Assembly: GCF_051903065.1 (NCBI RefSeq)
Contig: NZ_CP178438.1
Origin: Escherichia coli
Lineage (GTDB): Bacteria > Pseudomonadota > Gammaproteobacteria > Enterobacterales > Enterobacteriaceae
Length of the DNA stretch: 64,000 nucleotides
Direction: 5' to 3' (one strand)
Under the pieces are notes generated by a model. It had not been told where the DNA came from, made no database searches, and saw only the letters and a program-made list of their open reading frames with translations. Below are positions 2,464-63,982 of the stretch, in pieces. The position numbers were made by a program, and so were the translations under genes. The stretch's first letter is position 1. Each line of letters begins with the position of its first letter.

Positions 2464-2468
2464 GGTTC

Positions 2469-2507
2469 AAACAGGTGCTGCACACAACCAGACGCGGCAC
2501 CTGTTTT
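2469..2507 (+). terminator. putative stem-loop terminator between convergent yhgN and DprA-like gene
   Basis: aaacaggtgc (2469-2478) pairs with gcacctgttt (2497-2506), followed by T-run; loop is long (18 nt), so strength uncertain. Confidence 0.4.
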
Positions 2508-2508
2508 A

Positions 2509-3711
2509 TTACCTGAACTGATAATGACCTTCGCCCAATCGGATAACCCTTCCCTCTTCTTCTGCGCGGTTCAGCCACACACTAATTTGTTCGATGGTTA
2601 AACCAGTACAAGACGCCAGCCTTTCAATACTTATCGATTCCTTTGCAAGGATCGCCAGTTCCGCCACAAAGAGTTGATAAAAATCGACAGGCGTATACGC
2701 GGGCATTACTGCGTAATTTGCGTCATCTTCATGCAGCGAAAACAGTTCTGGTTGAGCGTTACGGAGTGCTCTGTCATACATCAGCCCAGGAACGTCTGGC
2801 AGTCTGATCGTCACATTCTCAGCCTGTTCAGCACTCCATGACGCCCCATTTTCTACTAATCGTGAATTGGCTGATTGCATATCCTGATTTGGTTTAACCT
2901 GCACAGGCAGCCACTGATGTTTTAATGCCTCCATCGCCCCGGTTATCGTTCCACCGGTCATTCCCGCACGTACAACCATTGCGCTTTCAGCAAGGCAATA
3001 AATATATTTATTTCGCGCCATCGCATTGCCGACGGTGAAACGTACCTCTGGGTAAAACGGCGAAATCAACACCAGGTTGCCTGCTATAAGCCCTTCACGC
3101 CATTTCACTAACGTACTCGTTTTTAACAAGCTATCAGCTAATACGCCAACGGCAGTTCCCCCGGCCTCCAGTGCCGACGCCATTGCACATTCATCAATAC
3201 CTCGCGCACCACCAGAGATAACGCAAATCCCCTGTTGGGCCAGTTTCGCGGCCAGTTGTTGGGTATAGCGCAAATCGTCAGTCGGAGCATCTCGCGAGCC
3301 AACAATCGCCATACCTTCCGCTTGCAGTAATGCTTTATTCCCGCAGCCAAATAAAACGGGAGGTGCATCCGTTCGCAATCGGTTTTTCAAGCGAACGGGA
3401 TAATCAGCATCTCCGCGGGTTAAGATCCATAAACCGGCGCGTTGCCACTTATCTACCGCCAACGCCAGACTATGACCACGCGCCAGCAAGCCAAGAATAC
3501 GCTCCTGAGAAATACGCGGATCGCTCCAGCCTGTAAGTTTCTCTTGCGGTTGCGGCACCAGAAGCTCGGCGGGACTGATACGTTGGTGCTTCAGCCATAA
3601 TGCAAACTTCCCCCATTCACTATTACTAAGAGGTTTATACTCACTCGCCGCCGCGCGAGAAAAATCGCTGGTTAGCAGGAGAGTTGCTTGTGCATTGGCT
3701 GAAAGATTCAT
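2509..3711 (-). CDS. DprA/Smf-like (SLOG Rossmann-fold) DNA-processing protein paralog
   Basis: ORF 2509..3804; DprA signature ...AIVGSRDAPTDDL...VISGGARGIDECAMASALEAGGTAVGVLADSL...MARNKYIYCLAESAMVVRAG; start assigned to Met32 (3709-3711), which overlaps the upstream helicase stop in a TGATG arrangement; the alternative start at 3804 would overlap the helicase by 94 nt. Confidence 0.75.
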   Translation of the reverse strand: MNLSANAQATLLLTSDFSRAAASEYKPLSNSEWGKFALWLKHQRISPAELLVPQPQEKLTGWSDPRISQERILGLLARGHSLALAVDKWQRAGLWILTRGDADYPVRLKNRLRTDAPPVLFGCGNKALLQAEGMAIVGSRDAPTDDLRYTQQLAAKLAQQGICVISGGARGIDECAMASALEAGGTAVGVLADSLLKTSTLVKWREGLIAGNLVLISPFYPEVRFTVGNAMARNKYIYCLAESAMVVRAGMTGGTITGAMEALKHQWLPVQVKPNQDMQSANSRLVENGASWSAEQAENVTIRLPDVPGLMYDRALRNAQPELFSLHEDDANYAVMPAYTPVDFYQLFVAELAILAKESISIERLASCTGLTIEQISVWLNRAEEEGRVIRLGEGHYQFR

Positions 3712-5807
3712 CAATTTTTTACCGAGGTAGAAGCAAGGGCAAGAGGATAAACCGTCGGGCAACCTGCCTGGCGTAACAGTGCTGTCAGAACTGTCAGCGT
3801 CCATGCAGAATCCACGATATCGTCAACCAGCAACGCCGGACCAGGCATCAAAGGAGGGGTAATCACAAACGCCCCGTCGAGATTTTGACACTGGTGGAAA
3901 CGGTTTTGCTGCATTTTCTGCGGTGGATTGTCCACGACTTTTTCAATGGCATCAATAAAAGGTAAGCCAAGTTTCGCCGCCAGTCGCCGGGCAAAATCAG
4001 AAACCAGGTCGAGGTGCTTTAATGAAGGAACGCAGCATACCCAGGTTGGTTCAGGATGCGGATTCCAGCGTTGGCGAACCATTTCCGCACATGCCTCCAC
4101 CAGTTCATCACTGAATCGTCCCGTTTTTTTCTCCTGTGCTACCTGCTTTCCCCACCCGGAATCTCCCCAACGAGAAAGGATTCGCCCCGTAGATCCTTGT
4201 AAACTCGCAGGCAAGTTCCCTTTAAATCCGTATTGCGTAAAAGCCCCAGCTGCCACCTGTTTATTGAGATTTAATGGCAGGTCAGCGTGTTTAATAAATA
4301 AGTTTGCCGCATGGAGTAAGCCGCTATCAATGTCGGGCGACAACAACGGACGCTGAAGACAACTGCTACATTTACCACAACGTTCGGCACCTGGCTCATC
4401 GAGTGCGCGGCGCAGAAATTGCATTTTGCACTCCTTGGTCGTGATATAGCTTTCAACGTCTGCCAGCTCACTTTTTCTCTGATTCATCAAATGGTTAATT
4501 CGTTCATGGTCAGGAGAAAAACTGACAATTGTTCTGCGCCATAATTTCTCGGTATACACCACAGGCGATGGATTTTCAGCTACCAATAATTTCAGTGCTT
4601 TTTCTATTTGCCCATAACGGAGATTCGTCCGTTGTTCAATGCCTCGTAAGGTAAGACCGTCATTCACGCTAAGTACGTTGAGTATTTCATGAATTTGTGC
4701 CTCCGCAGGAAAGGCGCTTTCACGGAAGAATTTATGAATAGCACGGTCTTCACTGCCGCAAAGCAGTATGCCAACAGCAGAATCGATACCGCGACCGGCA
4801 CGCCCCACCTGTTGGTAGTAACCAACTATCGAACCTGGCATCTGGTAATGAATAACAAACCCCAAATCCGGTTTGTCAAAGCCCATTCCCAGCGCCGTTG
4901 TCGCAACCAGCACTTTAATTTTATTTGCCAGCAACGCCTGCTCCAGATATTCCCTGGCAGTATTAGAATCTTCCGCGCCTTCACAAGTCACGCCGCTGTA
5001 GTAAGCAAATGCACTGATACCATTTTTCCTTAACCACTCGGCGACAAGTTCGGCATCGCGAGTAGTCAGGGTATAAACAATTCCCGATTTGGAAAACTGA
5101 GGGATAACCGTTGCTAACCATGCCAGACGGGATGACTGTTCACCTAAGACTAAGGCATCAAGCGCCAAACTTTCGCGAGCCAGCGTTCCACGCTGAATCA
5201 CAATGTCACCCAATTGCTGACGGATATCCTCAACGACACGGTTATTCGCTGTCGCGGTTGTACCCAGAACAGGGGTATTCGCAGGTAGTTGGCGCAAAAT
5301 ATCTAATATACGTCGGTAATCCGGGCGAAAATCGTGGCCCCAATCAGAGATGCAGTGCGCCTCGTCGACCACAAGCAAGCCAATACGATCGGCTATAGGA
5401 TATAAAACCGTTTCGATAAAGTCCTGGTTTGCCAAACGTTCCGGGGAAACCAGCAAGCAATCGACCTCACCTTGCAGCAACTTATCGCTAATGCGCTGCC
5501 ATTCTTCTCTGTTTGTAGAATTCAACGTTTCAGCCGTAATACCTAACCGTTCAGCGGCGGCAACCTGGTTACGCATCAGGGCAAGCAAAGGAGAGATGAT
5601 AATTGTCGGGCCAGCGCCGCGATCGCGGAAGATTTTACTGGCGATGAAGTACACAGCACTTTTCCCCCAGCCAGTGCGTTGGACAACCAGCAGTTTTCGC
5701 CGTTGGTTCACCACCGCGTCTATGGCTTCCCATTGCCCTTCCCTGAAAGTAGCGGTGGTATTTCCTAACATCCGCTGTAAAAGCAATTCAGCTGCGTGCT
5801 TTTCCAT
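3711..5807 (-). CDS. RecQ-family SF2 DNA helicase with C-terminal ComF/GntX-like phosphoribosyltransferase-fold domain
   Basis: 698 aa; Walker A QRTGWGKS, DEAH box VVDEAHCISDWGHDFRPDY, TATA motif, QQVGRAGRG arginine finger, Cys4 zinc site C460/C477/C480/C483 (17-3-3 spacing as in RecQ); C-terminal ...GAFVITPP...PALLVDDIVDSAWTL... resembles the PRTase-type nucleotide-binding loop of ComF-family proteins; strong SD (aggag) upstream of ATG at 5805-5807. Confidence 0.8.
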   Translation of the reverse strand: MEKHAAELLLQRMLGNTTATFREGQWEAIDAVVNQRRKLLVVQRTGWGKSAVYFIASKIFRDRGAGPTIIISPLLALMRNQVAAAERLGITAETLNSTNREEWQRISDKLLQGEVDCLLVSPERLANQDFIETVLYPIADRIGLLVVDEAHCISDWGHDFRPDYRRILDILRQLPANTPVLGTTATANNRVVEDIRQQLGDIVIQRGTLARESLALDALVLGEQSSRLAWLATVIPQFSKSGIVYTLTTRDAELVAEWLRKNGISAFAYYSGVTCEGAEDSNTAREYLEQALLANKIKVLVATTALGMGFDKPDLGFVIHYQMPGSIVGYYQQVGRAGRGIDSAVGILLCGSEDRAIHKFFRESAFPAEAQIHEILNVLSVNDGLTLRGIEQRTNLRYGQIEKALKLLVAENPSPVVYTEKLWRRTIVSFSPDHERINHLMNQRKSELADVESYITTKECKMQFLRRALDEPGAERCGKCSSCLQRPLLSPDIDSGLLHAANLFIKHADLPLNLNKQVAAGAFTQYGFKGNLPASLQGSTGRILSRWGDSGWGKQVAQEKKTGRFSDELVEACAEMVRQRWNPHPEPTWVCCVPSLKHLDLVSDFARRLAAKLGLPFIDAIEKVVDNPPQKMQQNRFHQCQNLDGAFVITPPLMPGPALLVDDIVDSAWTLTVLTALLRQAGCPTVYPLALASTSVKN

Positions 5808-5907
5808 CTTTATCTCCTGCGATCTTTAGGCAGTGATTAGAACGGATTATTTGCAGGTAAATTTGCGAGAGAGATCAAAAAGATGAAGAGAGGAGAAAAG
5901 AGAAATG

Positions 5908-5935
5908 AATTACTGCGAGCAAGCTCGCAGTAATT
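5908..5935 (-). terminator. rho-independent terminator downstream of gntU
   Basis: Perfect inverted repeat aattactgcgagc-aa-gctcgcagtaatt; on the minus strand it is followed by a T-rich tract (catttctcttttctcc...). Confidence 0.6.
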
Positions 5936-5946
5936 TGTCGCAGTAA

Positions 5947-9993: not shown

Positions 9994-11031
9994 TTACTTC
10001 GCGAGAGTCACGGTGGAGGGAGAGGCTTGCTCAAATCCGCGTTCAAGGATTTCCAGATTCGTAAGAACTTCAGATTCCTTGACGTAATTTGGCGCACCAT
10101 TGGTGATCGTTTGGTACAACGCATCATAAACGCGCCCGTAATCGCCCATCTCTGGCTTCATCTCTTCTCTGACCGTCACGCCCTCGTCATTGACATACTC
10201 CAGCACACCGACCGAATCATCCGCTGCGAATCCCGGTTCGCCCGGCATAATATTAGCCTTCAGGCTGGTTTCCTGCTGGTCGATACCGTATTTAATAAAC
10301 GAACCTTTCTTACCGTGAACGATAAATTTCGGATAATCGATTTTCACCAGATGGCTGGTTTTGACGATGGCTTTTAGATCGCCATAAAACAGTTGCGCTT
10401 CAAAGGTGTCGTCAGGATTGGCTTTATTGCGCAGGCTGCGGATGTCATAAGCGACGTGATCCGGGCGACCGAACAGAGAAATAATCTGGTCCATCGTATG
10501 CACACCAAGGCCATAGAACGCGCCATCCTGCGGCAGCCCAGGTTTGGTTTCTGCCACCGGGCGGTAATAGTCAAAATGGCTTTCCACTTCGACAATCTCT
10601 CCCAGCTTGCCGCTTTCAATCGCTTTTTTCGCCGTCAGGAAGCAGGAATCAAAGCGACGATTCTGATATGGCGTGACGGTCAGCCCTTTGCTTTTCGCCA
10701 GTGCAAACAGCTCTTTCGCCTGCGCAAGTGTCGGAGTGAACGGTTTTTCGACCAGCACATTTTTCCCGGCTTCCAGCGCGCGTTTCGCGTACTCGAAATG
10801 GCTGTCCGCGTGGGTGCAGACCACAACCAGCTTAACATCGGGATCGTTTAGCACTTCGTCGAGATCGCTGGTGAAATGGATATGAGAGTAAATGGGAGCC
10901 TGTTCTTCCGGCTTCGCATGGCGACGAAAAATATGCGCGACATGCCAGCTATCCTTGCGGTTAAGTACATACGGCAGATGGTAACGGGTGGTGCTTTTGC
11001 CGAAGCCAATAAAGGCGCAGTTGATGACCAT
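9994..11031 (-). CDS. yhhX: Gfo/Idh/MocA-family NAD(P)-dependent oxidoreductase
   Basis: 345 aa, N-terminal Rossmann motif CAFIGFGKSTTRYHLPY. Confidence 0.88.
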   Translation of the reverse strand: MVINCAFIGFGKSTTRYHLPYVLNRKDSWHVAHIFRRHAKPEEQAPIYSHIHFTSDLDEVLNDPDVKLVVVCTHADSHFEYAKRALEAGKNVLVEKPFTPTLAQAKELFALAKSKGLTVTPYQNRRFDSCFLTAKKAIESGKLGEIVEVESHFDYYRPVAETKPGLPQDGAFYGLGVHTMDQIISLFGRPDHVAYDIRSLRNKANPDDTFEAQLFYGDLKAIVKTSHLVKIDYPKFIVHGKKGSFIKYGIDQQETSLKANIMPGEPGFAADDSVGVLEYVNDEGVTVREEMKPEMGDYGRVYDALYQTITNGAPNYVKESEVLTNLEILERGFEQASPSTVTLAK

Positions 11032-11147
11032 GATTTCGTCCTTTTTAAGGTGGTTATTTACACCTTAGCGCAAAGCGGACGTGGTTCCTACTGGAGTGCG
11101 CATAACGAACACAAGCCCCCCCGTGGATAAATTGAGAACGAAAGATC

Positions 11148-11242
11148 AAAAAAAAAGCCAGCACCCGGCTGGCTAAGTAATACTGGAAGCAATGTGAGCA
11201 ATGTCGTGCTTTCAGGTTCTCCGCGAGGGTCTTCCTGATCGC
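11148..11242 (-). ncRNA. ryhB: RyhB small RNA (Fur-repressed iron-sparing sRNA)
   Basis: Minus-strand sequence GCGATCAGGAAGACCCTCGCGGAGAACCTGAAAGCACGACATTGCTCACATTGCTTCCAGTATTACTTAGCCAGCCGGGTGCTGGC followed by a T-run, recognised from memory as RyhB; lies between yhhX and yhhY as expected. Confidence 0.85.
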
Positions 11243-11245
11243 GAG

Positions 11246-11268
11246 ACAATAATAATCATTCTCATTCG
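11246..11268 (-). promoter_or_regulatory. Fur box in ryhB promoter
   Basis: Minus-strand gaatgagaatgattattattgtc immediately upstream of the RyhB 5' end resembles the Fur consensus GATAATGATAATCATTATC. Confidence 0.6.
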
Positions 11269-11363
11269 CACTTGTCCAACACTTTTTGCAAAAAAATGCA
11301 TTTGACTCGCATTTGAAAGTCAATGATGTTGAAAGGGACATTTACCCCAAAGAGGACAAAGGA

Positions 11364-11852
11364 ATGAGTGAGATAGTAATACGCCACGCAGAAACACGGG
11401 ATTACGAGGCCATTCGGCAGATTCACGCCCAGCCAGAGGTGTATTACAACACGCTACAGGTGCCTCATCCTTCCGATCATATGTGGCAGGAGCGACTCGC
11501 CGATCGTCCCGGCATCAAACAGTTAGTTGCCTGTATTGATGGAACCGTCGTGGGTCACCTCACCATTGACGTGCAACAGCGCCCACGCCGCAGTCATGTT
11601 GCCGATTTTGGTATCTGTGTCGACTCTCGTTGGAAGAACCGCGGCGTCGCCAGCGCCCTGATGCGAGAGATGATTGAAATGTGCGACAACTGGTTACGGG
11701 TAGATCGCATTGAACTAACCGTGTTTGTCGATAACGCCCCGGCAATTAAGGTCTATAAAAAATACGGCTTTGAAATTGAAGGGACTGGTAAGAAGTACGC
11801 ATTGCGTAATGGTGAATATGTCGATGCGTATTATATGGCGCGGGTGAAATAG
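11364..11852 (+). CDS. yhhY: GNAT-family N-acetyltransferase
   Basis: ORF 11286..11852 (TTG start in track); 162-aa form from ATG 11364 (MSEIVIRHAETRDYE...) with upstream AGGA; GNAT motifs (RNRGVASALMREM). Confidence 0.85.
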   Translation: MSEIVIRHAETRDYEAIRQIHAQPEVYYNTLQVPHPSDHMWQERLADRPGIKQLVACIDGTVVGHLTIDVQQRPRRSHVADFGICVDSRWKNRGVASALMREMIEMCDNWLRVDRIELTVFVDNAPAIKVYKKYGFEIEGTGKKYALRNGEYVDAYYMARVK

Positions 11853-11879
11853 AGAATTTGCAATCTAAGTTTGTCATTT

Positions 11880-11906
11880 AAGCCCTCACCTACCGGGAGA
11901 GGGCTT
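11880..11906. terminator. putative bidirectional stem-loop between convergent yhhY and ggt
   Basis: aagccctc ... gagggctt inverted repeat in the 60-bp convergent intergenic region; no clean T-run. Confidence 0.4.
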
Positions 11907-11912
11907 AAGATA

Positions 11913-13646
11913 TTAATAACCCGCCGTTAAATCATCCACCGAGCGCGGATCGGATGCGCCGTACAACTCACCGTCCGGCCCAACCATAATGCTTTGTGTA
12001 CTGCCCATCGCCTCTTTCAGCGCCACTTTCTGACCTTTTGCTTCCAGCAGCTTGAGCGTATCCGGGCTAAATCCTTTTTCGACACGCAGCTCGTCCGGCA
12101 ACCACTGATGGTGGAAACGCGGCGCATTGGTCGCTTCAGCGACGTTCATGCCATAATCGATGCTATTCACCACCATTTGAAGCACTGTAGTGATGATCCG
12201 GCTCCCGCCAGGGCTACCGGTGACCAGCCAGGTTTTACCGTCTTTCACCACAATGGTGGGTGACATCGATGACAGCGGGCGTTTGTTCGGCCCGACGGCG
12301 TTGGCATCACCGCCCACCAGCCCGTAAACGTTCGGTACGCCCGGTTTGGCGGAGAAATCATCCATCTGGTTATTAAGCAGAATACCGCTCTCGCCCGCGA
12401 CAATGCCCGTACCGAAGGTGGTGTTCAGCGTATAGGTCACCGCCACCGCGTTACCATCTTTATCCACCACTGAGTAATGGGTAGTTTGATTACTCTCATA
12501 AGGCGCAAGCTTGCCAGGGCGAATCTCGCTGGACGGTTTCGCTTTATTGATATCGATTTGCTCGGCAATAGATTTGGCATAGGCTTTATTGGTCAGCGCC
12601 TGCCACGGGACTTTCACAAAATCCGGGTCGCCAAGATATTCCGAGCGGTCAGCGTAGGCATATTTCTCCGCTTCTGCCATGATCTGCATCGCGTCGGCGC
12701 TGCCAAAACCGTATTTCTTCATATCGAAGTTTTCCAGAATATTGAGGATTTGTACGATATGGATCCCGCCGGAGGATGGCGGTGGCATGGAGTAAACCTG
12801 ATACCCGCGATAATCGCCGCTTATCGGTGTGCGTTCGACCGCTTTATACGCCGCTAAATCTTCTTTAGTGATCAGGCCACCGTTTTTCTGCATCTCCTGG
12901 GCAATCTGTTCCGCTATCGTGCCTTTGTAGAATTCGTCCGGGCCGTTTTCGGCAATCATCTCCAGGCTCTTTGCCAGGTTCGCCTGCACCAGCTTGTCGC
13001 CCTTTTTCAGCGGCTCGCCCTCTTTCCAGAAGATAGCCTTGCTGTTTTCGTGATTCGGCAGCACTTCGCTCCCGTAGGTTTTGAGATCGTCAGCCAGCGC
13101 GTCGTTAACGATAAAACCATCGCGTGCCAGTTTAAACGCTGGCTGCACCACTTTGTTCAACGGCATTGTGCCGTATTTATCCAACGCCAGCGAGAAACCA
13201 GCGACCGTACCGGGCGTGCCGGAAGCCAGATGCGAAGTGAGTGATTTTTTGCTGTCCGGGTTGCCCTGGTCATCAAGGAACATATCGCGGGTCGCTTTGG
13301 CGGGTGCCATTTCGCGGAAATCGATAGCGGTGGTATTGCCATTTTTCGAGCGGATCAGCATAAAACCACCACCGCCCAGATTCCCTGCCTGCGGATGCGT
13401 TACCGCCAGCGCGTAGCCCACAGCCACGGCGGCATCAACGGCATTCCCGCCCTCCTTGAGGATATCCACCCCCACCTGAGTGGCAGTAGCATCTACAGAT
13501 GCCACCATCCCCTGTTTCGCGCGTACCGGATGGAAGACATCTTCCTCCACGCCGTAAGAAACAGGAGGCGCAGCGGCGGCGCTAAAACAACTTCCTGAGA
13601 GCAGAGCAGCAATGGCCACCCGGCGTAAAAACGTCGGTTTTATCAT
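11913..13646 (-). CDS. ggt: gamma-glutamyltranspeptidase
   Basis: ORF 11913..13673; product from MIKPTFLRRVAIAALLSGSCFSAAAA... (signal peptide); catalytic Thr region NQTTHYSVVD present. Confidence 0.92.
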   Translation of the reverse strand: MIKPTFLRRVAIAALLSGSCFSAAAAPPVSYGVEEDVFHPVRAKQGMVASVDATATQVGVDILKEGGNAVDAAVAVGYALAVTHPQAGNLGGGGFMLIRSKNGNTTAIDFREMAPAKATRDMFLDDQGNPDSKKSLTSHLASGTPGTVAGFSLALDKYGTMPLNKVVQPAFKLARDGFIVNDALADDLKTYGSEVLPNHENSKAIFWKEGEPLKKGDKLVQANLAKSLEMIAENGPDEFYKGTIAEQIAQEMQKNGGLITKEDLAAYKAVERTPISGDYRGYQVYSMPPPSSGGIHIVQILNILENFDMKKYGFGSADAMQIMAEAEKYAYADRSEYLGDPDFVKVPWQALTNKAYAKSIAEQIDINKAKPSSEIRPGKLAPYESNQTTHYSVVDKDGNAVAVTYTLNTTFGTGIVAGESGILLNNQMDDFSAKPGVPNVYGLVGGDANAVGPNKRPLSSMSPTIVVKDGKTWLVTGSPGGSRIITTVLQMVVNSIDYGMNVAEATNAPRFHHQWLPDELRVEKGFSPDTLKLLEAKGQKVALKEAMGSTQSIMVGPDGELYGASDPRSVDDLTAGY

Positions 13647-19285: not shown

Positions 19286-19507
19286 GCGGTGACGGTACGG
19301 GTGAGGGAAAATGGGAGATGGGGCACGGATATCCCGAGAATGCACTGAAAAGAGGCGATTAACGGCCAGCTAATCGCCAGAACTCCTTACCATGAAGAGC
19401 AAAAATGGCAGCAAATTCTGCGTCCAGTTTTGCTGCCCGATGAGAGCTACATTTTTCAATTTTAACAAAAGATTGCCGCGACACTGGTCTAACGGCAAAG
19501 AAGATTT

Positions 19508-20254
19508 TCATTGCACCACACTCTGCTTCAGCCGCTCATTGGCGGTCTTAATCCATTCCCGGTGGTGTTTTCTATAATGAGGTCTTGAGCGTTTAGCCGT
19601 ATCAACCACGGCAACATACTGCTCGTTGGCTTCACGTAACCGACTCATTTTCGCCAACATTTCCGCATAGTAAATACGCGCCTGCGGGCCGGGGTAATAA
19701 GAAATCAATACTTCAAACTCGCTTTCCGCATCAGCGTATTTTTCTTGTGCGGCTAACGTTCTGGCAAATAACAAATGCCCGTCTGCCGACTGAAAATCAG
19801 GGTTATAACGCATCACATCTTCCAGCGTCTGCTGACAGGCGGCGAACTCCTGAATAGCAAACTGTGCCTGCGCCAGGCTTAGCATCATTGCCGCTTCATG
19901 GGCGAATATCCCGCTTAACGCCTGCTGATAATGGGGAACAGCTTCGTGATAACGCCCCAGACGCGCCAGTTCATTAGCCAACGCATAATGGTTTTGATTC
20001 GTCTCGGCAATCGCCAGTTCTTCGGTTAATTTGCGCAGGTGGCGCTCAGGGTTGAGTTTGTTCTGCAGGCGCATCAGCAAAGTATGCCCGTGACGGTCAG
20101 CGCCCGTTTCAGGCAGCATCACTATGACGAAATACGCCACGCAGCCAATCACCGGAAAACAGAAAATGATAAAAATCCAGTACCGCTCTTGTCCGGTACG
20201 GTAAGCGTGAATACAGCAAAGCAGTTCAAGCATGACAACAACGGCATAATGCAT
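19508..20254 (-). CDS. hypothetical membrane protein, PLDc_N-like N-terminal domain plus helical-repeat (TPR-like) C-terminal region
   Basis: 248 aa; N-terminus LELLCCIHAYRTGQERYWIFIIFCFPVIGCVAYFVIVMLPE fits the small two-helix PLDc_N pattern (R..W....I..P..G...Y); C-terminal part Ala/Leu-rich helical repeats; no database check run. Confidence 0.6.
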   Translation of the reverse strand: MHYAVVVMLELLCCIHAYRTGQERYWIFIIFCFPVIGCVAYFVIVMLPETGADRHGHTLLMRLQNKLNPERHLRKLTEELAIAETNQNHYALANELARLGRYHEAVPHYQQALSGIFAHEAAMMLSLAQAQFAIQEFAACQQTLEDVMRYNPDFQSADGHLLFARTLAAQEKYADAESEFEVLISYYPGPQARIYYAEMLAKMSRLREANEQYVAVVDTAKRSRPHYRKHHREWIKTANERLKQSVVQ

Positions 20255-20372
20255 GGGAGGGAACCTTTCCGTGGCAAATAAGTGGTCTGGTTTTAATCCT
20301 CCCGGTCAGTTGAAACAAGTCTGTATACGGACGAAGATCCCGGCAGAACGTGGCTGCCGGGTATTCGATAAT

Positions 20373-26016: not shown

Positions 26017-26540
26017 TCGCTCTGTGTAAAAAGCAGTTCAATGGATTTGGTTGGGAAAAATAACGCATTTTTGTTTTCCCCGACTAAAGGGATAAAGCCC
26101 AGCGATTTATAAAACGTATGGGCTTTTTCATTCAGCGCCTCGACAAAAAGACCGTGAATACCTACCGCTAAAGAGGCTGACCAGACGACTTTCATGGCAT
26201 GAGCAACCAGTGTTGCTCCCCATCCCTGCCCCTGTATTGAATGATCAATTGCCAGACGCCCAAGAGTGACGCTGGGAATATTTTTGTAGGGAATTTTTTT
26301 CTGTTTCGATTTCGAGGGCAATGCGGCTCGTTCAAAACAACTGCCGCATAATGTGTAATATCCCAGCACCTGACGTTCTGGAGTGTTGCGACAAAGGATA
26401 TACGCTCGCAGAATTTTGTTGCGATGTTGACGAACGAGATGTGTCGTCAGAAAGAGATTTAACGCTTCCTCGCCGCAGTCGAATCGCTGTAGATCATAAT
26501 CTGCATCATCGGTCAGAATCTCTATCGTCAGATCATCCAT
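26013..26540 (-). CDS. GNAT-family acetyltransferase toxin of a type II TA pair (AtaT/KacT/TacT family)
   Basis: 175 aa; GNAT acetyl-CoA motif (QGQGWGATLVAHAM); immediately downstream of a DUF1778 antitoxin with a 7-nt gap. Confidence 0.8.
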   Translation of the reverse strand: MDDLTIEILTDDADYDLQRFDCGEEALNLFLTTHLVRQHRNKILRAYILCRNTPERQVLGYYTLCGSCFERAALPSKSKQKKIPYKNIPSVTLGRLAIDHSIQGQGWGATLVAHAMKVVWSASLAVGIHGLFVEALNEKAHTFYKSLGFIPLVGENKNALFFPTKSIELLFTQSD

Positions 26541-26546
26541 AAATTA

Positions 26547-26813
26547 TTACATTCCCTGAAGACGTTTTACCGCACGTTTTAGCTTTTCACCTGGTGACGG
26601 TGGATTACTCAGCGCATCCATCACCCGCGTCCAGGATTCCTCATTGAGGATCACCCGCCGATGCTGTTCAATCACTTCCGCAGCCCGCTGCGAAGCGCTG
26701 TTCAACATAAATTGGCTGACGGACTGATTAGATATCGCTGCCGCTTCCTCAATCATACTTTTGTCATCGTCAGTTAAACGCAGATCGATACGCTGCTTTT
26801 TAACAGCAGACAT
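26547..26813 (-). CDS. DUF1778 (RHH-like) antitoxin (AtaR/KacA/TacA family)
   Basis: 88 aa MSAVKKQRIDLRLTDDDKSMIEEAAAISNQSVSQFMLNSA...; strong SD AGGAGA upstream. Confidence 0.8.
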   Translation of the reverse strand: MSAVKKQRIDLRLTDDDKSMIEEAAAISNQSVSQFMLNSASQRAAEVIEQHRRVILNEESWTRVMDALSNPPSPGEKLKRAVKRLQGM

Positions 26814-26828
26814 GTGAACTCTCCTGCT

Positions 26829-26859
26829 CCGTATAATATGTACGGCACATCACCGTACA
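26829..26859 (-). promoter_or_regulatory. putative TA operator/promoter (overlapping palindromes)
   Basis: ccgtataatatgtacgg and tgtacggcacatcaccgtaca inverted repeats directly upstream of the antitoxin start; typical autoregulatory TA operator layout. Confidence 0.5.
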
Positions 26860-26910
26860 ATAAGCATATCCTGGATTGTTTAATCTTTCTACAACCATTT
26901 CGACAAACAT

Positions 26911-26942
26911 AAAAAAACCCGATGGACGTTAAGCGCATCGGG
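26911..26942 (-). terminator. rho-independent terminator of livJ
   Basis: Minus-strand CCCGATG-cgcttaacgtc-CATCGGG followed by TTTTTTT, 20 nt downstream of livJ stop. Confidence 0.8.
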
Positions 26943-26962
26943 CATTTTCATTTATCTATCCG

Positions 26963-41784: not shown

Positions 41785-42060
41785 GTGGCTTCTGTTTCTA
41801 TCAGCTGTCCCTCCTGTTCAGCTACTGACGGGGTGGTGCGTAACGGCAAAAGCACCGCCGGACATCAGCGCTATCTCTGCTCTCACTGCCGTAAAACATG
41901 GCAACTGCAGTTCACTTACACCGCTTCTCAACCCGGTACGCACCAGAAAATCATTGATATGGCCATGAATGGCGTTGGATGCCGGGCAACAGCCCGCATT
42001 ATGGGCGTTGGCCTCAACACGATTTTACGTCACTTAAAAAACTCAGGCCGCAGTCGGTAA
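41785..42060 (+). CDS. insA: IS1 InsA (transposition inhibitor / N-terminal part of transposase)
   Basis: 91 aa [43 protein letters not shown]... (GTG start). Confidence 0.93.
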
Positions 42061-42482
42061 CCTCGCGCATACAGCCGGGCAGTGACGTCATCGTCTGCGC
42101 GGAAATGGACGAACAGTGGGGCTATGTCGGGGCTAAATCGCGCCAGCGCTGGCTGTTTTACGCGTATGACAGGCTCCGGAAGACGGTTGTTGCGCACGTA
42201 TTCGGTGAACGCACTATGGCGACGCTGGGGCGTCTTATGAGCCTGCTGTCACCCTTTGACGTGGTGATATGGATGACGGATGGCTGGCCGCTGTATGAAT
42301 CCCGCCTGAAGGGAAAGCTGCACGTAATCAGCAAGCGATATACGCAGCGAATTGAGCGGCATAACCTGAATCTGAGGCAGCACCTGGCACGGCTGGGACG
42401 GAAGTCGCTGTCGTTCTCAAAATCGGTGGAGCTGCATGACAAAGTCATCGGGCATTATCTGAACATAAAACACTATCAATAA
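41979..42482 (+). CDS. insB: IS1 InsB frame (transposase InsAB' made by -1 frameshift at the A-run near 42036-42041)
   Basis: 167-aa -1 frame ORF overlapping the insA 3' end; slippery ttaaaaaac motif present. Confidence 0.9.
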
Positions 42483-42497
42483 GTTGGAGTCATTACC

Positions 42498-42506
42498 GAG
42501 CAGGCA
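42498..42506. repeat. IS1 target-site duplication, right copy (GAGCAGGCA)
   Basis: Identical 9-mer to 41721-41729. Confidence 0.8.
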
Positions 42507-42865
42507 ATGGCCACCGTTTATCTAACAGTGGCCATTTGATTTGAGGAAATGATGAAACATTATTCAGAAAATTAATTTAAAAAAACCATTCCTTAAGTCA
42601 AATATATATAAACGCCGAATAGCGATTAAATCCTTCTCAAAGAATGCACTGATAACATTGTGTTATTTTTATTGCCTCATTTTTCTCACTCACTTATAGT
42701 TGGTCCCTGCTGGCAGTAATTTAGTCATTTCAGAGATTTTTACTCTGATGTGCACTTACTGACTTATCTCACAAGTAATTTTTTCTCTAAATAAAGAATA
42801 GTGATGCCAGCAATTACAGTTAAAACTTGCTTTACTCGTAAAAACAATACTTTAATGGGGTTCTA

Positions 42866-43255
42866 ATGAGACATTACATGAAATGGTTTGCGGCTATTGC
42901 TGTTGTGGGTGCTTTAGCGGGTTGCGCGCGTACTGCGCCAATTGATCAGGTTCACTCAACCGTCAGCGCTGGTCATACCCAGGAACAAGTGAAAAAAGCG
43001 ATTCTGAAAGCTGGCGTTGAACGCAAATGGATTATGTCCGAAGCCGGACAAGGCATAATTAAAGCACGTCAACAGTCACGCGATCATTCAGCGGAAATAC
43101 GCATTAACTACACGGCATCCAGCTACGATATCAATTATGAAAATAGCCAGAACCTTCAAGCGTCAGGCGGACAAATTCATAAAAACTACAATCGCTGGGT
43201 CCGCAATCTCGACAAAGATATTCAACTGAATTTGTCAGCGGGCGCAGATTTATAA
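42866..43255 (+). CDS. small lipoprotein (first gene of the polyene-type cluster)
   Basis: 129 aa, signal peptide with lipobox MKWFAAIAVVGALAGC; alternative start ATG 42878. Confidence 0.75.
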   Translation: MRHYMKWFAAIAVVGALAGCARTAPIDQVHSTVSAGHTQEQVKKAILKAGVERKWIMSEAGQGIIKARQQSRDHSAEIRINYTASSYDINYENSQNLQASGGQIHKNYNRWVRNLDKDIQLNLSAGADL

Positions 43256-43314
43256 TTCCTCCTAAAGTCGGGCCGTTGCGGTCCGATAATAATTTAATTC
43301 CCTCTTAACAGGTT

Positions 43315-44382
43315 GTGCCCAACATGTACGAACAGGATTCTCTTAGCGCACTGGATGCGATTACCGAAGCTCAACGCATTGCCTTTGCCCCTATGCTTTT
43401 TCAAACAGCACTCTGCCTACGTAATGCGGGTGTACTTTCATATCTGGATCGGCAAGGCAAACATGGCGCAACGCTGGCTGATATCACCGAACATAGCCAT
43501 ATCAACGAATATGCTGCCAGCGTTCTGTTAGATATGGGCTTAAGCGGGCGAATTATTACCTGTAAAGAGGGAATTTATTACCTGGCGAAAATCGGTCATT
43601 ACCTCCTGCATGACACTATGACTCGCGTGAATATGGATTTCACCCAGGATGTCTGTTACCAGGGGCTCTTCTTCCTCGCCGATTCACTCAATGAAGGAAA
43701 ACCTTCCGGGTTAAAAGTATTTGGCGACTGGTCGACGATATATCCGGCACTTTCGCAATTACCAGACGCCGCTCGTGAAAGCTGGTTTGCGTTTGATCAT
43801 TACTATTCAGATGGCGCATTTAACGCCGCACTGCCTTATGTATTCGCCAACAACCCCACAACATTGTACGATGTAGGCGGCAATACGGGTAAGTGGGCTT
43901 TGCGTTGCTGCAAATACAATGAAAACATCGCCGTGACGTTATTAGATCTGCCACAACAAATCGTACTAGCGAAAGAAAATATCGCGAATGCAGGTTTTTC
44001 TGATCGCATAGATTTCCATGCGGTGGATATGCTAAGCGATGCCCCATTACCGGGCGAGGCTGATATCTGGTGGATGAGCCAATTTTTAGACTGTTTTTCA
44101 CCCGAACAAATAATTAGCATACTCAGCAAAATTGCCAGCGTAATGAAGCCTGGCGCAAAAGTTTGCATCATGGAGTTGTTCTGGGATGCGCAGCGGTTTG
44201 AAGCAGCATCGTTTAGCCTGAACGCGTCCTCACTTTATTTTACCTGCATGGCAAACGGTAACAGCCGTTTCTATAGTGCAGAGAAATTTTACGACTATCT
44301 GAATAAAGCAGGATTCCAGGTAGCAGAGCGCCACGATAATTTAGGCGTTGGGCATACACTTTTGATATGCCAAAAGAAATAA
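43315..44382 (+). CDS. class I SAM-dependent (O-)methyltransferase
   Basis: 355 aa; SAM-binding motif LYDVGGNTGKWAL; GTG start at 43315, alternative ATG at 43324. Confidence 0.8.
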   Translation: MPNMYEQDSLSALDAITEAQRIAFAPMLFQTALCLRNAGVLSYLDRQGKHGATLADITEHSHINEYAASVLLDMGLSGRIITCKEGIYYLAKIGHYLLHDTMTRVNMDFTQDVCYQGLFFLADSLNEGKPSGLKVFGDWSTIYPALSQLPDAARESWFAFDHYYSDGAFNAALPYVFANNPTTLYDVGGNTGKWALRCCKYNENIAVTLLDLPQQIVLAKENIANAGFSDRIDFHAVDMLSDAPLPGEADIWWMSQFLDCFSPEQIISILSKIASVMKPGAKVCIMELFWDAQRFEAASFSLNASSLYFTCMANGNSRFYSAEKFYDYLNKAGFQVAERHDNLGVGHTLLICQKK

Positions 44383-44422
44383 TCGTCACTTAATAATTTT
44401 GGTTTACCGCGGGCGCGCGTTG

Positions 44423-45145
44423 ATGAAATTTACATTAAATATTACCGACTGGCAGGCACTGGCGCCTGGACTTAGCGAAGCGCAGCAATGGCAAGCATGG
44501 TCGCGCCAGCCGTGGGCGATTGACCCTGCCGCGCCGTTGGCAAAATTAAGTGAACTGCCAATGATGACCGCCCGCCGCCTCAGTTCAGGCAGCAAACTGG
44601 CTGTTGAATGCGGTCTGGCAATGCTACGCCGCCATCAGCCAGACGCCGTTTTGTATACCAGTCGTCATGGCGAACTGGAGCGCAATTACCGCATTGTTCA
44701 TGCACTGGCAACCGAACAGGCGCTTTCTCCGACCGACTTCGCGCTCTCCGTACACAACTCTTCCGTGGGTAACCTGACCATTGCGGCCAAACAGCCGATC
44801 GTTTCGTCATCGCTTTCGGCTGGTCGCGACACTTTCCAGCAAGGTTTGTGTGAAGTGCTTAGCCTGTTACAAGCGGGATACCAGCGCGTGCTGATGGTCG
44901 ATTTTGACGGTTTCCTGCCCGAGTTTTATCACCCACAACTGCCATCAGAAATGCCGACCTGGCCGTACGCCGTCGCGCTGGTGATTGAAGCTGGCGATGA
45001 GTGGCAATGTGAAACGCAGTCAGCCATTGCGGGCAATGAAACAACACTGCCGCAAAGCATGTTGTTTTTACAGCACTATTTACAAAATGTAGACACATTT
45101 TCACTGCCTGGCGAGCGCGTGCAATGGCGCTGGAGCCACAGATGA
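44423..45145 (+). CDS. ketosynthase-like protein lacking the active-site Cys (chain-length-factor-like KS partner)
   Basis: ORF 44399..45145 (TTG in track); ATG at 44423 gives MKFTLNITDWQALAPG...; about 240 aa, thiolase-like N-terminal half without a C-x-S-S catalytic motif. Confidence 0.7.
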   Translation: MKFTLNITDWQALAPGLSEAQQWQAWSRQPWAIDPAAPLAKLSELPMMTARRLSSGSKLAVECGLAMLRRHQPDAVLYTSRHGELERNYRIVHALATEQALSPTDFALSVHNSSVGNLTIAAKQPIVSSSLSAGRDTFQQGLCEVLSLLQAGYQRVLMVDFDGFLPEFYHPQLPSEMPTWPYAVALVIEAGDEWQCETQSAIAGNETTLPQSMLFLQHYLQNVDTFSLPGERVQWRWSHR

Positions 45146-45963
45146 GTAAGCTGATGTCACGTCTGGAGTGGACCTGGCGACTGGTCATGACCGGGTTATG
45201 TTTTGCCCTGTTTGGTCTCGGCGGCCTGCTGCTTTCTGTCGTGTGGTTTAACATATTGTTAGTTTTGGTGTGGGATACTTCCCGCCGCCGTCGTTTGGCG
45301 CGTCGCAGCATTGCCGCCAGTTTTCGCCTGTTTTTAACTGTCGCGAAAGGGCTTGGCGTGCTGGATTATCGTATTGATGGCGCTGAAATTTTACGTCAGG
45401 AACGCGGTTGCCTCGTCGTAGCCAATCATCCCACGCTGATCGATTACGTGCTGCTGGCGTCAGTCATGCCAGAAACTGACTGCCTGGTGAAAAGCGCACT
45501 GTTAAAAAATCCTTTTCTTGGCGGCGTCGTGCGGGCGGCAGATTATTTAATCAACAGCGAAGCTGAAACCCTGTTACCCCGCTGCCAACAGCGACTGGCA
45601 CAGGGTGACACTATCCTGATTTTCCCCGAAGGCACACGAACGAAGCCCGGTGAAAAAATGACGCTGCAGCGCGGGGCGGCGAATATTGCCGTGCGCTGCG
45701 CCAGCGATTTACGCATCGTGACAATCGGCTGTAGCGAGCATCTGCTGGATAAACAAAGTAAATGGTATGACGTTCCACCTGACCGGCCGTTTTTTACGGT
45801 TGCAGTCCATGGTCGGGTTGAAATCAATAAATTTTACGATGCAACTTCACAAGAACCGGCGCTGGCAGCAAGGCAGTTAAACCGGCATCTTTTGCTTCAA
45901 TTACAACAAGGTTGTTTACCTCTCTCAGGAATAAATAATGCAAGCGCTTTATCTGGAAATTAA
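45142..45963 (+). CDS. PlsC-type (lysophospholipid) acyltransferase
   Basis: ORF 45124..45963; start at ATG 45142 forms an ATGA overlap with the upstream stop; motifs NHPTLIDYVLL (H-x4-D) and IFPEGTRT. Confidence 0.8.
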   Translation: MSKLMSRLEWTWRLVMTGLCFALFGLGGLLLSVVWFNILLVLVWDTSRRRRLARRSIAASFRLFLTVAKGLGVLDYRIDGAEILRQERGCLVVANHPTLIDYVLLASVMPETDCLVKSALLKNPFLGGVVRAADYLINSEAETLLPRCQQRLAQGDTILIFPEGTRTKPGEKMTLQRGAANIAVRCASDLRIVTIGCSEHLLDKQSKWYDVPPDRPFFTVAVHGRVEINKFYDATSQEPALAARQLNRHLLLQLQQGCLPLSGINNASALSGN

Positions 45964-46195
45964 AAACCTCATCATCAGCACCCTCAATCTGGACGAGTTG
46001 ACGCCTGATGATATCGATACCGACGCGCCGCTGTTTGGCGACGGTTTAGGGCTGGACTCTATCGATGCCCTGGAACTGGGACTGGCAGTAAAAAATGAGT
46101 ACGGCATCGTGCTCTCTGCGGAAAGCGAAGAGATGCGTCAGCACTTTTTCTCCGTCGCCACTCTGGCCTCTTTCATTGCTGCGCAACGTGCCTGA
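45938..46195 (+). CDS. acyl carrier protein 1
   Basis: 85 aa; phosphopantetheine-attachment motif GLGLDSIDALELG; SD agga 7 nt upstream. Confidence 0.88.
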   Translation: MQALYLEIKNLIISTLNLDELTPDDIDTDAPLFGDGLGLDSIDALELGLAVKNEYGIVLSAESEEMRQHFFSVATLASFIAAQRA

Positions 46196-46206
46196 GGAAA
46201 GCCATC

Positions 46207-46458
46207 ATGACAGAACAACAAACCGTCTATCAGGAAGTCTCAGCCCTGCTGGTTAAGCTGTTTGAAATCGATCCGCAGGACATCAAACCTGAAGCGCGCC
46301 TGTACGAAGATCTGGAACTGGACAGCATCGACGCCGTTGACATGATTGTGCACCTGCAAAAGAAAACCGGTAAGAAAATCAAGCCGGAAGAGTTTAAAGC
46401 AGTGCGTACAGTCCAGGATGTCGTCGAGGCTGTAGAACGCCTGCTACAAGAAGCCTGA
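46207..46458 (+). CDS. acyl carrier protein 2
   Basis: 83 aa; motif DLELDSIDAVDMI; SD gagga upstream. Confidence 0.88.
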   Translation: MTEQQTVYQEVSALLVKLFEIDPQDIKPEARLYEDLELDSIDAVDMIVHLQKKTGKKIKPEEFKAVRTVQDVVEAVERLLQEA

Positions 46459-46462
46459 TCTG

Positions 46463-47044
46463 ATGTCGGGCATTCGCTCGCTACCGATGATTAAGCTGCT
46501 GACTGGATTATTGCTGCTCGCCTGGCCGTTTGTGATTTGGTTTGGCTTAGCGCATAACGGCCTGCACTGGCTGTTACCGCTAATGGCGTTGCTGCTTTTG
46601 TTGCGTCTGCGCCAGACCCGTCGCCAGGCGGGGCCTTTACAAGCCGTCACGCAACTCGTCGCTGTCGTGGGCATCGCATTATGTGTCGCCAGCTTTATGT
46701 TGAAAACGCACCAGCTACTGCTGTTTTACCCGGTAGTGGTTAACGCGGTCATGCTGGCGGTTTTTGGCGGTTCGCTGTGGTCGGCAATGCCGATAGTTGA
46801 GCGGCTGGCGCGGTTGCAGGAGCCAGACCTCCCGGAAAAGGGCGTGCGCTATACCCGCCACGTCACGCAAATCTGGTGCGGCTTTTTCATCATTAACGGT
46901 GGAATTGCCCTCTTTACCGCGCTTTATGCCGATATGTCGTTATGGACCGCCTGGAACGGCATGATTGCTTATTTGTTGATGGGGACGTTAATGGCTGGTG
47001 AATGGCTGGTGCGCCGCCAGGTTATGAAAAGAGATCGCGCATGA
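46463..47044 (+). CDS. hypothetical integral membrane protein
   Basis: 193 aa, about 4-5 hydrophobic helices (LLTGLLLLAWPFVIWFGLAH...). Confidence 0.7.
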   Translation: MSGIRSLPMIKLLTGLLLLAWPFVIWFGLAHNGLHWLLPLMALLLLLRLRQTRRQAGPLQAVTQLVAVVGIALCVASFMLKTHQLLLFYPVVVNAVMLAVFGGSLWSAMPIVERLARLQEPDLPEKGVRYTRHVTQIWCGFFIINGGIALFTALYADMSLWTAWNGMIAYLLMGTLMAGEWLVRRQVMKRDRA

Positions 47045-48402
47045 AGCAGACCTTACCGCTTGCACGCTGGCTGACTGCGCCACGCCCTGATGACACACCC
47101 ATTGCGTGGCTGAACGAAAGTACCTGGACGCTGGGCGATTTGCGTCACGATGTCGCGCAACTTATCTGCCGCTTGCAGCAACAGCCGGGTGAACGCTGGG
47201 CGCTGTGCTTTGAGAACAGCTATCTGTTTATCGTTGCCCTGCTCGCCACGCTACACGCCGGAAAAACGCCGGTGCTTCCGGGGCATAACCGTGTTATCCA
47301 GCTTAACGAGCAACGTGAACTTTTTGATGGTGTGCTTAGCGACAGCGAACTTAACTGGCAAGGTTCATTGCTGTTGGTAGCAAGTTCCCCACAAGTCGCG
47401 ACACAATCCTTCACCTTTGCCGCTATAGCGCCAGAGGCTTATATCGAGCTGTTTACCTCCGGTTCCACGGGACAGCCGAAACGGGTGATTAAACCTGTTC
47501 ATTTGCTGGACCGTGAAGCAGAACTGCTGGCTGAACGATTAGGCGCACGTCTGGCGGATTGTCGTGTCATCGGTTCCGTATTGCCGCAGCATTTGTACGG
47601 CCTGACTTTTCGCGTTTTCCTGCCCATGGCGCTGGGATTACCCCTACATGCCGCCATGCTCTGGTATGTCGAACAGTTTGCCGCGTTGAGTCATCAGCAT
47701 CGCTATATCTTCATCAGCAGCCCGGCATTTTTGAAGCGTCTGGATACACAGCTTTCCCCACCGCCCGTTCAGGTGCTTCTCTCTGCTGGCGGTGAGCTAC
47801 CGTGGCAGGATGTACAACACACCGCGAGCTGGCTGCGCGTCTGGCCTGATGAAATCTACGGCAGCACGGAAACCGGCGTCATCGCCTGGCGCTACCGCGA
47901 ACAAGAGCAACGCCGCTGGCTACCCCTCCCAGGTATGCAGTTCCAGGCCGAAGGCGATGCCTTTCGCCTCTTTTCACCGCTGATAGCGGAAGATAACGGC
48001 CTGTTACTCGACGATATCTTACAGTTTAGCGAAGATGGTCAGTTCCATCTGATGGGGCGTCGTGGGCGCATCGTTAAGATTGAAGAAAAACGTATTTCAC
48101 TCCAGGAAGTAGAACAACGTCTACTGGCGCTGGACGGCATTCGCGAGGCGGCGGCAGTTCCCGTTACGCGCGGCGGGCGTCAGAGCATAGGCGTTTTGCT
48201 GGTGCTGGATGACGAAGCTCATCTGCAATGGCAGAACGGCGGCGGGCATAGCCAGGAAATGACCTGGCGGCGTTTACTGCGCCCGACGCTGGAGCCAGTT
48301 GCTATTCCGCGTTACTGGCGCGTTATTGATGAAATGCCAGTAAACAGTATGAACAAGCGTGTCTATGCGCAATTACAGGAGTTATTTCATGAAGCCCCAT
48401 GA
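47041..48402 (+). CDS. adenylate-forming enzyme (AMP-dependent synthetase/ligase; probable starter-acid:ACP ligase)
   Basis: ORF 47002..48402; start at ATG 47041 (ATGA overlap with upstream stop); AMP-binding motifs FTSGSTGQPKRV and YGSTETG. Confidence 0.82.
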   Translation: MKQTLPLARWLTAPRPDDTPIAWLNESTWTLGDLRHDVAQLICRLQQQPGERWALCFENSYLFIVALLATLHAGKTPVLPGHNRVIQLNEQRELFDGVLSDSELNWQGSLLLVASSPQVATQSFTFAAIAPEAYIELFTSGSTGQPKRVIKPVHLLDREAELLAERLGARLADCRVIGSVLPQHLYGLTFRVFLPMALGLPLHAAMLWYVEQFAALSHQHRYIFISSPAFLKRLDTQLSPPPVQVLLSAGGELPWQDVQHTASWLRVWPDEIYGSTETGVIAWRYREQEQRRWLPLPGMQFQAEGDAFRLFSPLIAEDNGLLLDDILQFSEDGQFHLMGRRGRIVKIEEKRISLQEVEQRLLALDGIREAAAVPVTRGGRQSIGVLLVLDDEAHLQWQNGGGHSQEMTWRRLLRPTLEPVAIPRYWRVIDEMPVNSMNKRVYAQLQELFHEAP

Positions 48403-48742
48403 AATCGAGCGCCATCAGGCACAAACGAATCACCTTGAAATTGTTCTGCATCTCAGGGCGGATCTGTTCTGGTTTCGCGGTCATTTTGCCGTGCAACCAT
48501 TACTCCCAGGAGTTGCGCAAATCGATTGGGCGATGAGCTACGCGCTCAATCTGCTCGCGCCTGGCTGGCGTTTTCACTCCATTCAGAACATAAAATTCCA
48601 GTCTCCGTTGCTGCCGGAAAACCGCGTCACGCTCGCGCTTAACTGGCAGGAAGAACGCCAGATTCTGAGCTTTAGCTATCAGCGTCACGACGGTGACGCC
48701 CGCCACACCGCCAGTAGCGGGAAGATACGCCTATGTCGGTAA
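48389..48742 (+). CDS. FabZ/FabA-like hotdog-fold 3-hydroxyacyl-ACP dehydratase
   Basis: ORF 48359..48742; start ATG 48389 with SD aggag 8 nt upstream; motif FRGHFAVQPLLPGVAQIDWAM resembles FabZ GHFP..P..PGVL..EA.AQ. Confidence 0.78.
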   Translation: MKPHEIERHQAQTNHLEIVLHLRADLFWFRGHFAVQPLLPGVAQIDWAMSYALNLLAPGWRFHSIQNIKFQSPLLPENRVTLALNWQEERQILSFSYQRHDGDARHTASSGKIRLCR

Positions 48743-50409: not shown

Positions 50410-50412
50410 AGG

Positions 50413-54305: not shown

Positions 54306-54306
54306 T

Positions 54307-63917: not shown

Positions 63918-63949
63918 GTTATTTCTGAAACGAGGAAAGAAAAGATATT

Positions 63950-63982
63950 AACTGAACTTAATTTATAAAATTAAGTTCAGTT
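63950..63982. repeat. perfect 13-bp inverted repeat (hairpin) downstream of nikR
   Basis: aactgaacttaat-ttataaa-attaagttcagtt; no T-run, so not a canonical intrinsic terminator. Confidence 0.55.

Follow-up and report, generated by a model that had tools for sequence, protein, structure and literature searches.

A short, probably ancestral yhhY–ggt junction in Escherichia coli and the foreign islets that take its place in K-12 and other strains

The window analysed here, a stretch of 64,000 nucleotides from the Escherichia coli contig NZ_CP178438.1 (assembly GCF_051903065.1), carries the convergent genes yhhY and ggt with only a short spacer between them. With high confidence we regard this spacer as the ancestral, never interrupted yhhY–ggt junction, including a hairpin at the 3' end of ggt, while elsewhere in the species foreign islets have entered the same site and the resulting alleles have most likely been spread by recombination. 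The features on which the argument turns are as follows.

11364-11852, plus strand: yhhY, GNAT N-acetyltransferase of 162 aa (open reading frame; Pfam Acetyltransf_1, E = 9e-19; RefSeq annotation of E. coli ECNB21-M121).
11850-11852, plus strand: yhhY stop codon TAG.
11853-11912: convergent intergenic spacer of 60 bp, the unoccupied form of the variable yhhY–ggt site.
11853-11877: left 25 nt of the spacer, AGAATTTGCAATCTAAGTTTGTCAT; islet DNA stands in its place in K-12-type and O157-type genomes (comparison of spacer and islet ends).
11878-11908: hairpin made of a 10-bp stem and a further, inner helix of 3 bp, located 4 nt past the ggt stop codon; folds on both strands.
11913-13646, minus strand: ggt, gamma-glutamyltransferase, the glutathione hydrolase proenzyme (open reading frame; RefSeq annotation of ECNB21-M121).
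11913-11915, minus strand: ggt stop codon TAA.
K-12 b3442-b3446, with IS1E: yhhZ-yrhA-yrhD-yrhB segment, a strain-variable islet.

Because the yhhY stop codon ends at 11852 and that of ggt begins at 11913, the spacer is exactly 60 bp long, and no gene is present between the two stop codons. The coordinates of both genes are the same in the RefSeq annotation of the near-identical genome of ECNB21-M121. The initial annotation had described the two genes as converging over only 60 bp with one hairpin, and this description is upheld by the reading frames, the RefSeq coordinates and the folding calculations. Between yhhX and yhhY the small RNA RyhB (Rfam RF00057, 83 bits) is located at 11149-11213 on the minus strand, as it is in K-12, and its terminator at 11156-11174 is the sole canonical terminator called near the junction.

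In K-12 MG1655 the stop codons of yhhY and ggt are separated by 3,454 bp, which contain yhhZ, yrhA (a pseudogene split by IS1E, insA6/insB6), yrhD and yrhB. The blastn homology between the window and K-12 stops at window positions 11851-11855, where yhhY ends, and restarts exactly at the ggt stop, with window position 11913 corresponding to K-12 position 3,585,081; in these alignments the two ggt genes are 96-97% identical. Local alignment of the 60 bp with the K-12 islet detected no islet remnants. The only resemblance is the hairpin stem, for which K-12 has AGCCCTCTTCCCACGAAGAGGGC just downstream of ggt. A separate hairpin, CCCTTTTTC...GAAAAAGGG, is found in K-12-type genomes at the left end of the islet, 7 nt after the yhhY stop. 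The Hcp-HNH gene and the Imm35 gene that are present between yhhY and ggt in K-12, Nissle 1917 and O111:H8 are absent from the window. The initial annotation had named yhhZ, yrhA, an IS1 copy and yrhB as the K-12 genes at this position, which is correct for MG1655 with only the small yrhD left out. The proposed difference between the strains would be lost if an alignment found the same 60-bp junction in K-12; the alignment reveals that K-12 lacks it, and the difference therefore stands.

The direction of change is indicated by gene order in other Enterobacteriaceae. A scan for YhhY with one genome per species gave 41 loci, 36 of which hold both genes, and in 35 of these 36 yhhY and ggt are adjacent and convergent, with spacers of 34-369 bp that are mostly shorter than 125 bp. 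The adjacency is seen in E. albertii, E. whittamii, Escherichia sp. E1V33, Citrobacter, Enterobacter, Klebsiella, Lelliottia, Pluralibacter and Huaxiibacter, among others; the single exception is Franconibacter, which has a methionine-type ABC transporter between the two genes. Within the genus Escherichia, alignment with the window spacer over its full length was obtained for E. albertii (62 bp), Escherichia sp. E1V33 (60 bp), E. whittamii (70 bp) and strain E69 (60 bp), and the first three share with it the pattern AGAATTT...hairpin...AAGA(T/G)A. The left 25 nt are common to the window, E. albertii and Escherichia sp. E1V33 but missing from K-12-type genomes, so that no deletion in a K-12-type locus would yield the window spacer. 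These comparisons show that the adjacency of yhhY and ggt is ancestral and that the K-12, O157 and yrhB-only arrangements are derived insertions. The alignments likewise support the view that the window holds the empty ancestral allele, with the K-12 genes as the insertion, and is not a case of gene loss.

The converse would be that the lineage of the window once possessed an islet of the K-12 type (yhhZ-yrhB) that a clean deletion then removed, the 60 bp being the scar. Such a history could appeal to the islet state being that of the E. coli majority (3,805 of 5,426 genomes) and to the existence of the shorter yrhB-only variant, which could be a product of partial loss. However, it would have to account for a left segment that is absent from K-12-type genomes but recurs in E. 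albertii and Escherichia sp. E1V33, for the adjacency in 35 of 36 outgroup species loci, and for the lack of any islet remnant in the 60 bp. We consider a deletion scar highly improbable and retain the interpretation of the spacer as an original junction.

Two loci in the species scan are probably contamination in public assemblies. The first (L015), the sole yhhZ-bearing locus of the scan, is a 4-kb contig (CABHOW010000200.1) from a MAG labelled Flavihumibacter, in which YhhX, YhhY, YhhZ and YrhA are 99-100% identical to E. coli proteins, as in the K-12-type islet. The second (L036) is an Enterobacter-like locus labelled Chryseobacterium.

The frequency of the alternative arrangements was obtained with junction-specific queries against 5,426 complete E. 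coli genomes. The K-12-type left junction is present in 3,805 genomes (about 70%), the O157:H7-type junction leading into a DUF4225 gene in 343 (about 6%), and the yrhB-only junction in 233 (about 4%). The window-type 60-bp spacer occurs in 896 genomes at a coverage of at least 80%, or in 988 if any match is counted (about 17%). The K-12-type, O157-type, yrhB-only and empty classes account for about 99% of the genomes. The empty junction is the second commonest state, found in roughly one genome in six. A single joined match covers both yhhY and ggt in 1,238 genomes, a number that agrees with the state counts. Further variants of the empty site have spacers of 59 and 49 bp; partial matches to spacer positions 1-35 or 29-60, which might have been halves flanking an insert, turned out to be these variants. 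In E. coli HS-02 (L004, 6647-7032) a truncated yhhY is separated from the normal hairpin by 385 bp that are extremely rich in GC (GGCGGCCGCGGCCCGCCGGGG...); the GC-rich segment is either foreign DNA or an artefact, and may be an assembly problem.

The K-12-type islet differs from its surroundings in base composition, with a GC content of 31-35% as against 50-58% in the flanks, and the IS1 embedded in it stands out at about 56%. In Pfam searches YhhZ gave a T6SS_HCP match (E = 1.6e-11) and a weak, sub-threshold HNH match at its C-terminus, and YrhB gave a match to Imm35, Immunity protein 35 (E = 4e-23). Judged by these domain matches, the K-12 segment is an insertion in which yhhZ encodes an orphan toxin of type VI secretion, of the Hcp-HNH kind, and yrhB an immunity protein of the Imm35 family. 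Published work calls YhhZ an 'evolved Hcp' whose HNH domain is degenerate (PMC2907695) and also places it among the His-Me finger nucleases that occur in polymorphic toxin systems (PMC5714182). Hcp-HNH fusions (Hcp-ET1) are DNase effectors delivered by the T6SS and followed by immunity genes (PMC6730261). A T6SS is absent from K-12 (PMC6730261), and for this reason the module is an orphan there. The genes yhhZ-yrhAB have been listed as a predicted genomic island, in a paper whose functional assignment for them comes from B. subtilis genes that are unrelated but bear the same names (PMC3309015), and the IS1E in yrhA is a well-studied K-12 element (PMC12428005). No paper devoted to the yhhY–ggt junction was found in the literature. 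In the O157:H7-type strain 136 the site holds an alternative AT-rich islet of 1.86 kb (L010, 9509-11363), which encodes a 303-aa DUF4225 protein and, on the opposite strand, has an unannotated ORF of 138 aa (10579-10995) with long hydrophobic stretches. These two may form another toxin/immunity-style pair.

The occupied states all keep the ggt-proximal hairpin and differ only upstream of it. The O157-type islet has just its last 36 bp in common with K-12 and retains AGAAT, the first 5 nt of the ancestral spacer, while the yrhB-only form has its last 335 bp in common with K-12 and a unique left part of 96 bp. The 59-bp spacer of APEC E12049 combines a window-type left half with a K-12-type hairpin, and on sequence grounds it is the leading candidate for the state of the site before the K-12 and O157 islets entered. 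Neither a target-site duplication nor direct or inverted repeats were detected at the islet ends, where the longest shared word of 7 nt is at chance level, and neither an integrase nor a tRNA flanks the islet. At least three unrelated AT-rich inserts (the Hcp-HNH plus Imm35 islet, the islet with DUF4225 and membrane-protein genes, and yrhB with its unique 96-bp leader) end on the right no more than about 5 nt from the hairpin and on the left 0-5 nt from the yhhY stop. The foot of the hairpin could be a preferred capture site for interbacterial-competition cargo, possibly through structure-directed, integrase-free insertion, instead of the site of independent accidents followed by recombination, but this is a speculative idea to which we attach little weight.

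In 250-nt bins, E. coli strains are 80-99% identical in yhhY and 91-100% in ggt, which is unusually mosaic for core genes. The flank alleles are also decoupled from the state of the locus, as illustrated by the window ggt, which is 97-100% identical to that of an O157-type strain but only 94-98% to that of K-12. Since the mosaic flanks do not follow the locus state, whole-site alleles appear to move by homologous recombination through the flanks. The islet in Nissle 1917 and the empty sites in several diverged allele groups imply that the empty allele of any one lineage could have been regained by recombination and not inherited vertically. Applied to the window, this would mean that an islet-bearing ancestor replaced its whole yhhY–ggt segment with that of an empty-site donor, leaving an allele that is ancestral in form but re-imported. 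Apart from the mosaic flanks, such a replacement would be consistent with the composite spacer of APEC E12049 and with the matches to the window yhhY–ggt segment, of which only 5 records reach at least 99% identity, the other empty-site genomes being 89-94% identical over the same 1 kb. Its outcome at the sequence level, however, is the same as under vertical retention. Re-import is a possible though rather unlikely history for this lineage, and we continue to favour a junction that was never interrupted.

The hairpin at 11878-11908 has a stem of 10 bp (UUAAGCCCUC/GAGGGCUUAA) with 6 G-C pairs and a small inner helix of 3 bp. Its predicted folding energy is -20.9 kcal/mol on the plus strand (z = -3.2) and -20.3 kcal/mol on the minus strand (z = -3.5), and only 1 of 200 shuffled sequences folded as well. 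Whatever the state of the locus, a related hairpin adjoins ggt and lies 4 nt beyond its stop codon. Paired changes keep the stem intact and are found as TTAAG/CTTAA in the window and TTCAG/CTGAA in E. whittamii, as TTTCCCCTCT/AGAGGGGAAA in strain SCPM-O-B-8794 and as CGGCCC/GGGCCG in Nissle 1917. These compensatory changes were read directly from the sequences; a MAFFT alignment of the hairpins set the K-12-type 3' arm one column out of register. Two old hairpin alleles can be distinguished, one with loop ACCTACCGGGA and tail TTAAGATA and one with loop TTCCCACGAA and tail CGCTAACC. The loop is flipped between the window (11886-11900) and E. albertii (L014): the reverse complement of the window hairpin, AAGCCCTCTCCCGGTAGGTGAGGGCTT, matches the E. 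albertii hairpin, AAGCCCTCTCCCGGTAGGCGAGAGGGCTT, which indicates a palindrome inversion visible in the loop alone.

An intrinsic terminator should consist of a GC-rich stem-loop and a U-rich tract immediately 3' of it. The former is present, but no U-tract follows the stem on either strand, the downstream sequence being GAUAUUAAUAAC on the plus strand and AUGACAAACUUAG on the minus strand. A consensus terminator scan did not call the hairpin, since it lacks a T-run and its loop is beyond the limit of the tool. With no U-tract and no consensus call, the hairpin is therefore no more than a putative intrinsic terminator. An Rfam scan of 10900-12100 gave only RyhB and placed no family on the hairpin. 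Because the genes converge, the hairpin of the empty state also lies in the path of yhhY transcription. It is probably a 3'-end stem-loop for ggt that would serve as terminator or stabiliser. Alternatively, the hairpin might belong to a dispersed family of palindromic repeats (REP or boxC-like) that attracts insertions, and not be a dedicated 3'-end signal. The yhhY–ggt spacers of Enterobacter, Klebsiella, Citrobacter and Lelliottia (L019-L047) are filled with one to four stacked palindromic units, either REP-like (GCCGGGTAAGGCG...) or of the type CCCTCTCCC...GGGAGAGGG / CCCTCACCC, with predicted folding energies down to -105 kcal/mol, and the Escherichia stem GCCCTC/GAGGGC resembles the CCCTCTCCC...GGGAGAGGG palindromes. 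However, E. coli genomes contain the 60-bp sequence as a single copy (median of one place, maximum of two), and the spacing between the hairpin and the ggt stop is constant whichever state the locus is in. Membership of a repeat family is improbable in our view, and a stem-loop dedicated to the ggt 3' end is the preferred assignment.

That the window comes from a non-K-12 lineage with a different set of insertions, as had been suggested, is supported by its near-identity to ECNB21-M121, a meat isolate from Zhejiang (6 mismatches in about 49 kb), and by further insertion/deletion sites. The shared blocks are 96-99% identical to K-12, and besides the yhhY–ggt site the window differs from K-12 at five other such sites and past the 3' end of nikR. 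About 3.5 kb between yhgN and gntU (2464-5946) are absent from K-12; for the corresponding genes, the annotations of ECNB21-M121 and Nissle 1917 name a RecQ-family helicase and a DprA-like protein. A gene for a tetratricopeptide-repeat protein between ugpB and livF (19332-20372) and a hypothetical gene of 102 aa between zntA and tusA (37061-37475) are also not in K-12. The insertion relative to K-12 between panZ/panM and livJ (26020-26962) holds an AtaR/AtaT type II toxin-antitoxin pair according to the ECNB21-M121 annotation. A segment of about 16 kb between yhhT and acpT (41706-57875) is absent from K-12 and is annotated in ECNB21-M121 as a fatty-acid/polyketide-like cluster with ApeI and ApeP dehydratases, ketosynthases, ACPs, an MMPL transporter, a LolA-like protein and a glycosyltransferase; it appears to be the aryl polyene cluster of E. 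coli. A complete IS1 (41730-42497), 99.9% identical to K-12 IS1E, has inserted between yhhT and the gene with which this cluster begins, and a target duplication of 9 bp, GAGCAGGCA, flanks it. ECNB21-M121, although otherwise nearly identical, lacks this IS1, which is therefore a very recent insertion. Homology with K-12 ends just after nikR, at about 63924-64000. In ECNB21-M121 nikR is followed by a HicA/HicB toxin-antitoxin pair and then yhhJ, so that this lineage appears to lack the rhsB-yhhH-yrhC-yhhI segment of K-12.

The sequence of events that we propose starts from a ggt mRNA whose 3' end would be formed by the stem-loop 4 nt past the stop codon, acting as terminator or stabiliser. In most other E. 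coli, including K-12, AT-rich foreign DNA has replaced the stretch from the yhhY stop to the foot of the hairpin, amounting to 27-28 nt in K-12-type genomes and 23 nt in O157-type genomes. In K-12 this DNA is an orphan type VI secretion cassette in which YhhZ is the Hcp-HNH toxin and YrhB the Imm35 immunity protein, with YrhA and YrhD as the other products, and which IS1E hit later. Occupied and empty alleles would then have spread among lineages, most likely by homologous recombination via the flanking core genes. The difference in gene order is a gain by K-12 and not a loss by the window strain. The junction provides a clean worked example of a core-genome spacer for which E. coli has at least four alleles, among them an orphan type VI toxin/immunity cassette that K-12 carries without the secretion system. 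Differences of this kind are an already known and common form of strain polymorphism; the finding is mainly of a housekeeping nature and opens no new question.

Convergent gene pairs of E. coli can share terminator hairpins, and the empty junction resembles these in that its two stop codons enclose one GC-rich stem-loop, which folds equally well whichever strand is considered. It differs in that a U-tract is missing on either side and the consensus scan does not recognize it, so a shared terminator function is putative. With the K-12 yhhZ-yrhB segment the spacer has in common its position between the yhhY and ggt stop codons and a related ggt-proximal stem (AGCCCTC...GAGGGC), but the window contains none of the 3,454 bp of K-12 and has the 25-nt ancestral segment there instead. 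The cargo of the K-12-type islet is similar to the Hcp-ET effector-immunity modules of the E. coli T6SS, in which Hcp carries a C-terminal toxin (Ma et al. 2017, as summarised in PMC6730261), since the Hcp domain and HNH-like C-terminus of YhhZ are followed by immunity-type genes. This module is missing from the window, and in K-12 it is an orphan in which yrhA is split by IS1E. Unlike a classical integration hotspot, the site is a terminator-proximal spacer without integrase, tRNA or repeats. It is similar to the strain-specific islands known from comparing O157 with K-12, in that one core-genome site carries alternative AT-rich cargos according to lineage, here the K-12-type Hcp-HNH islet, the O157-type DUF4225 islet, yrhB only, or nothing.
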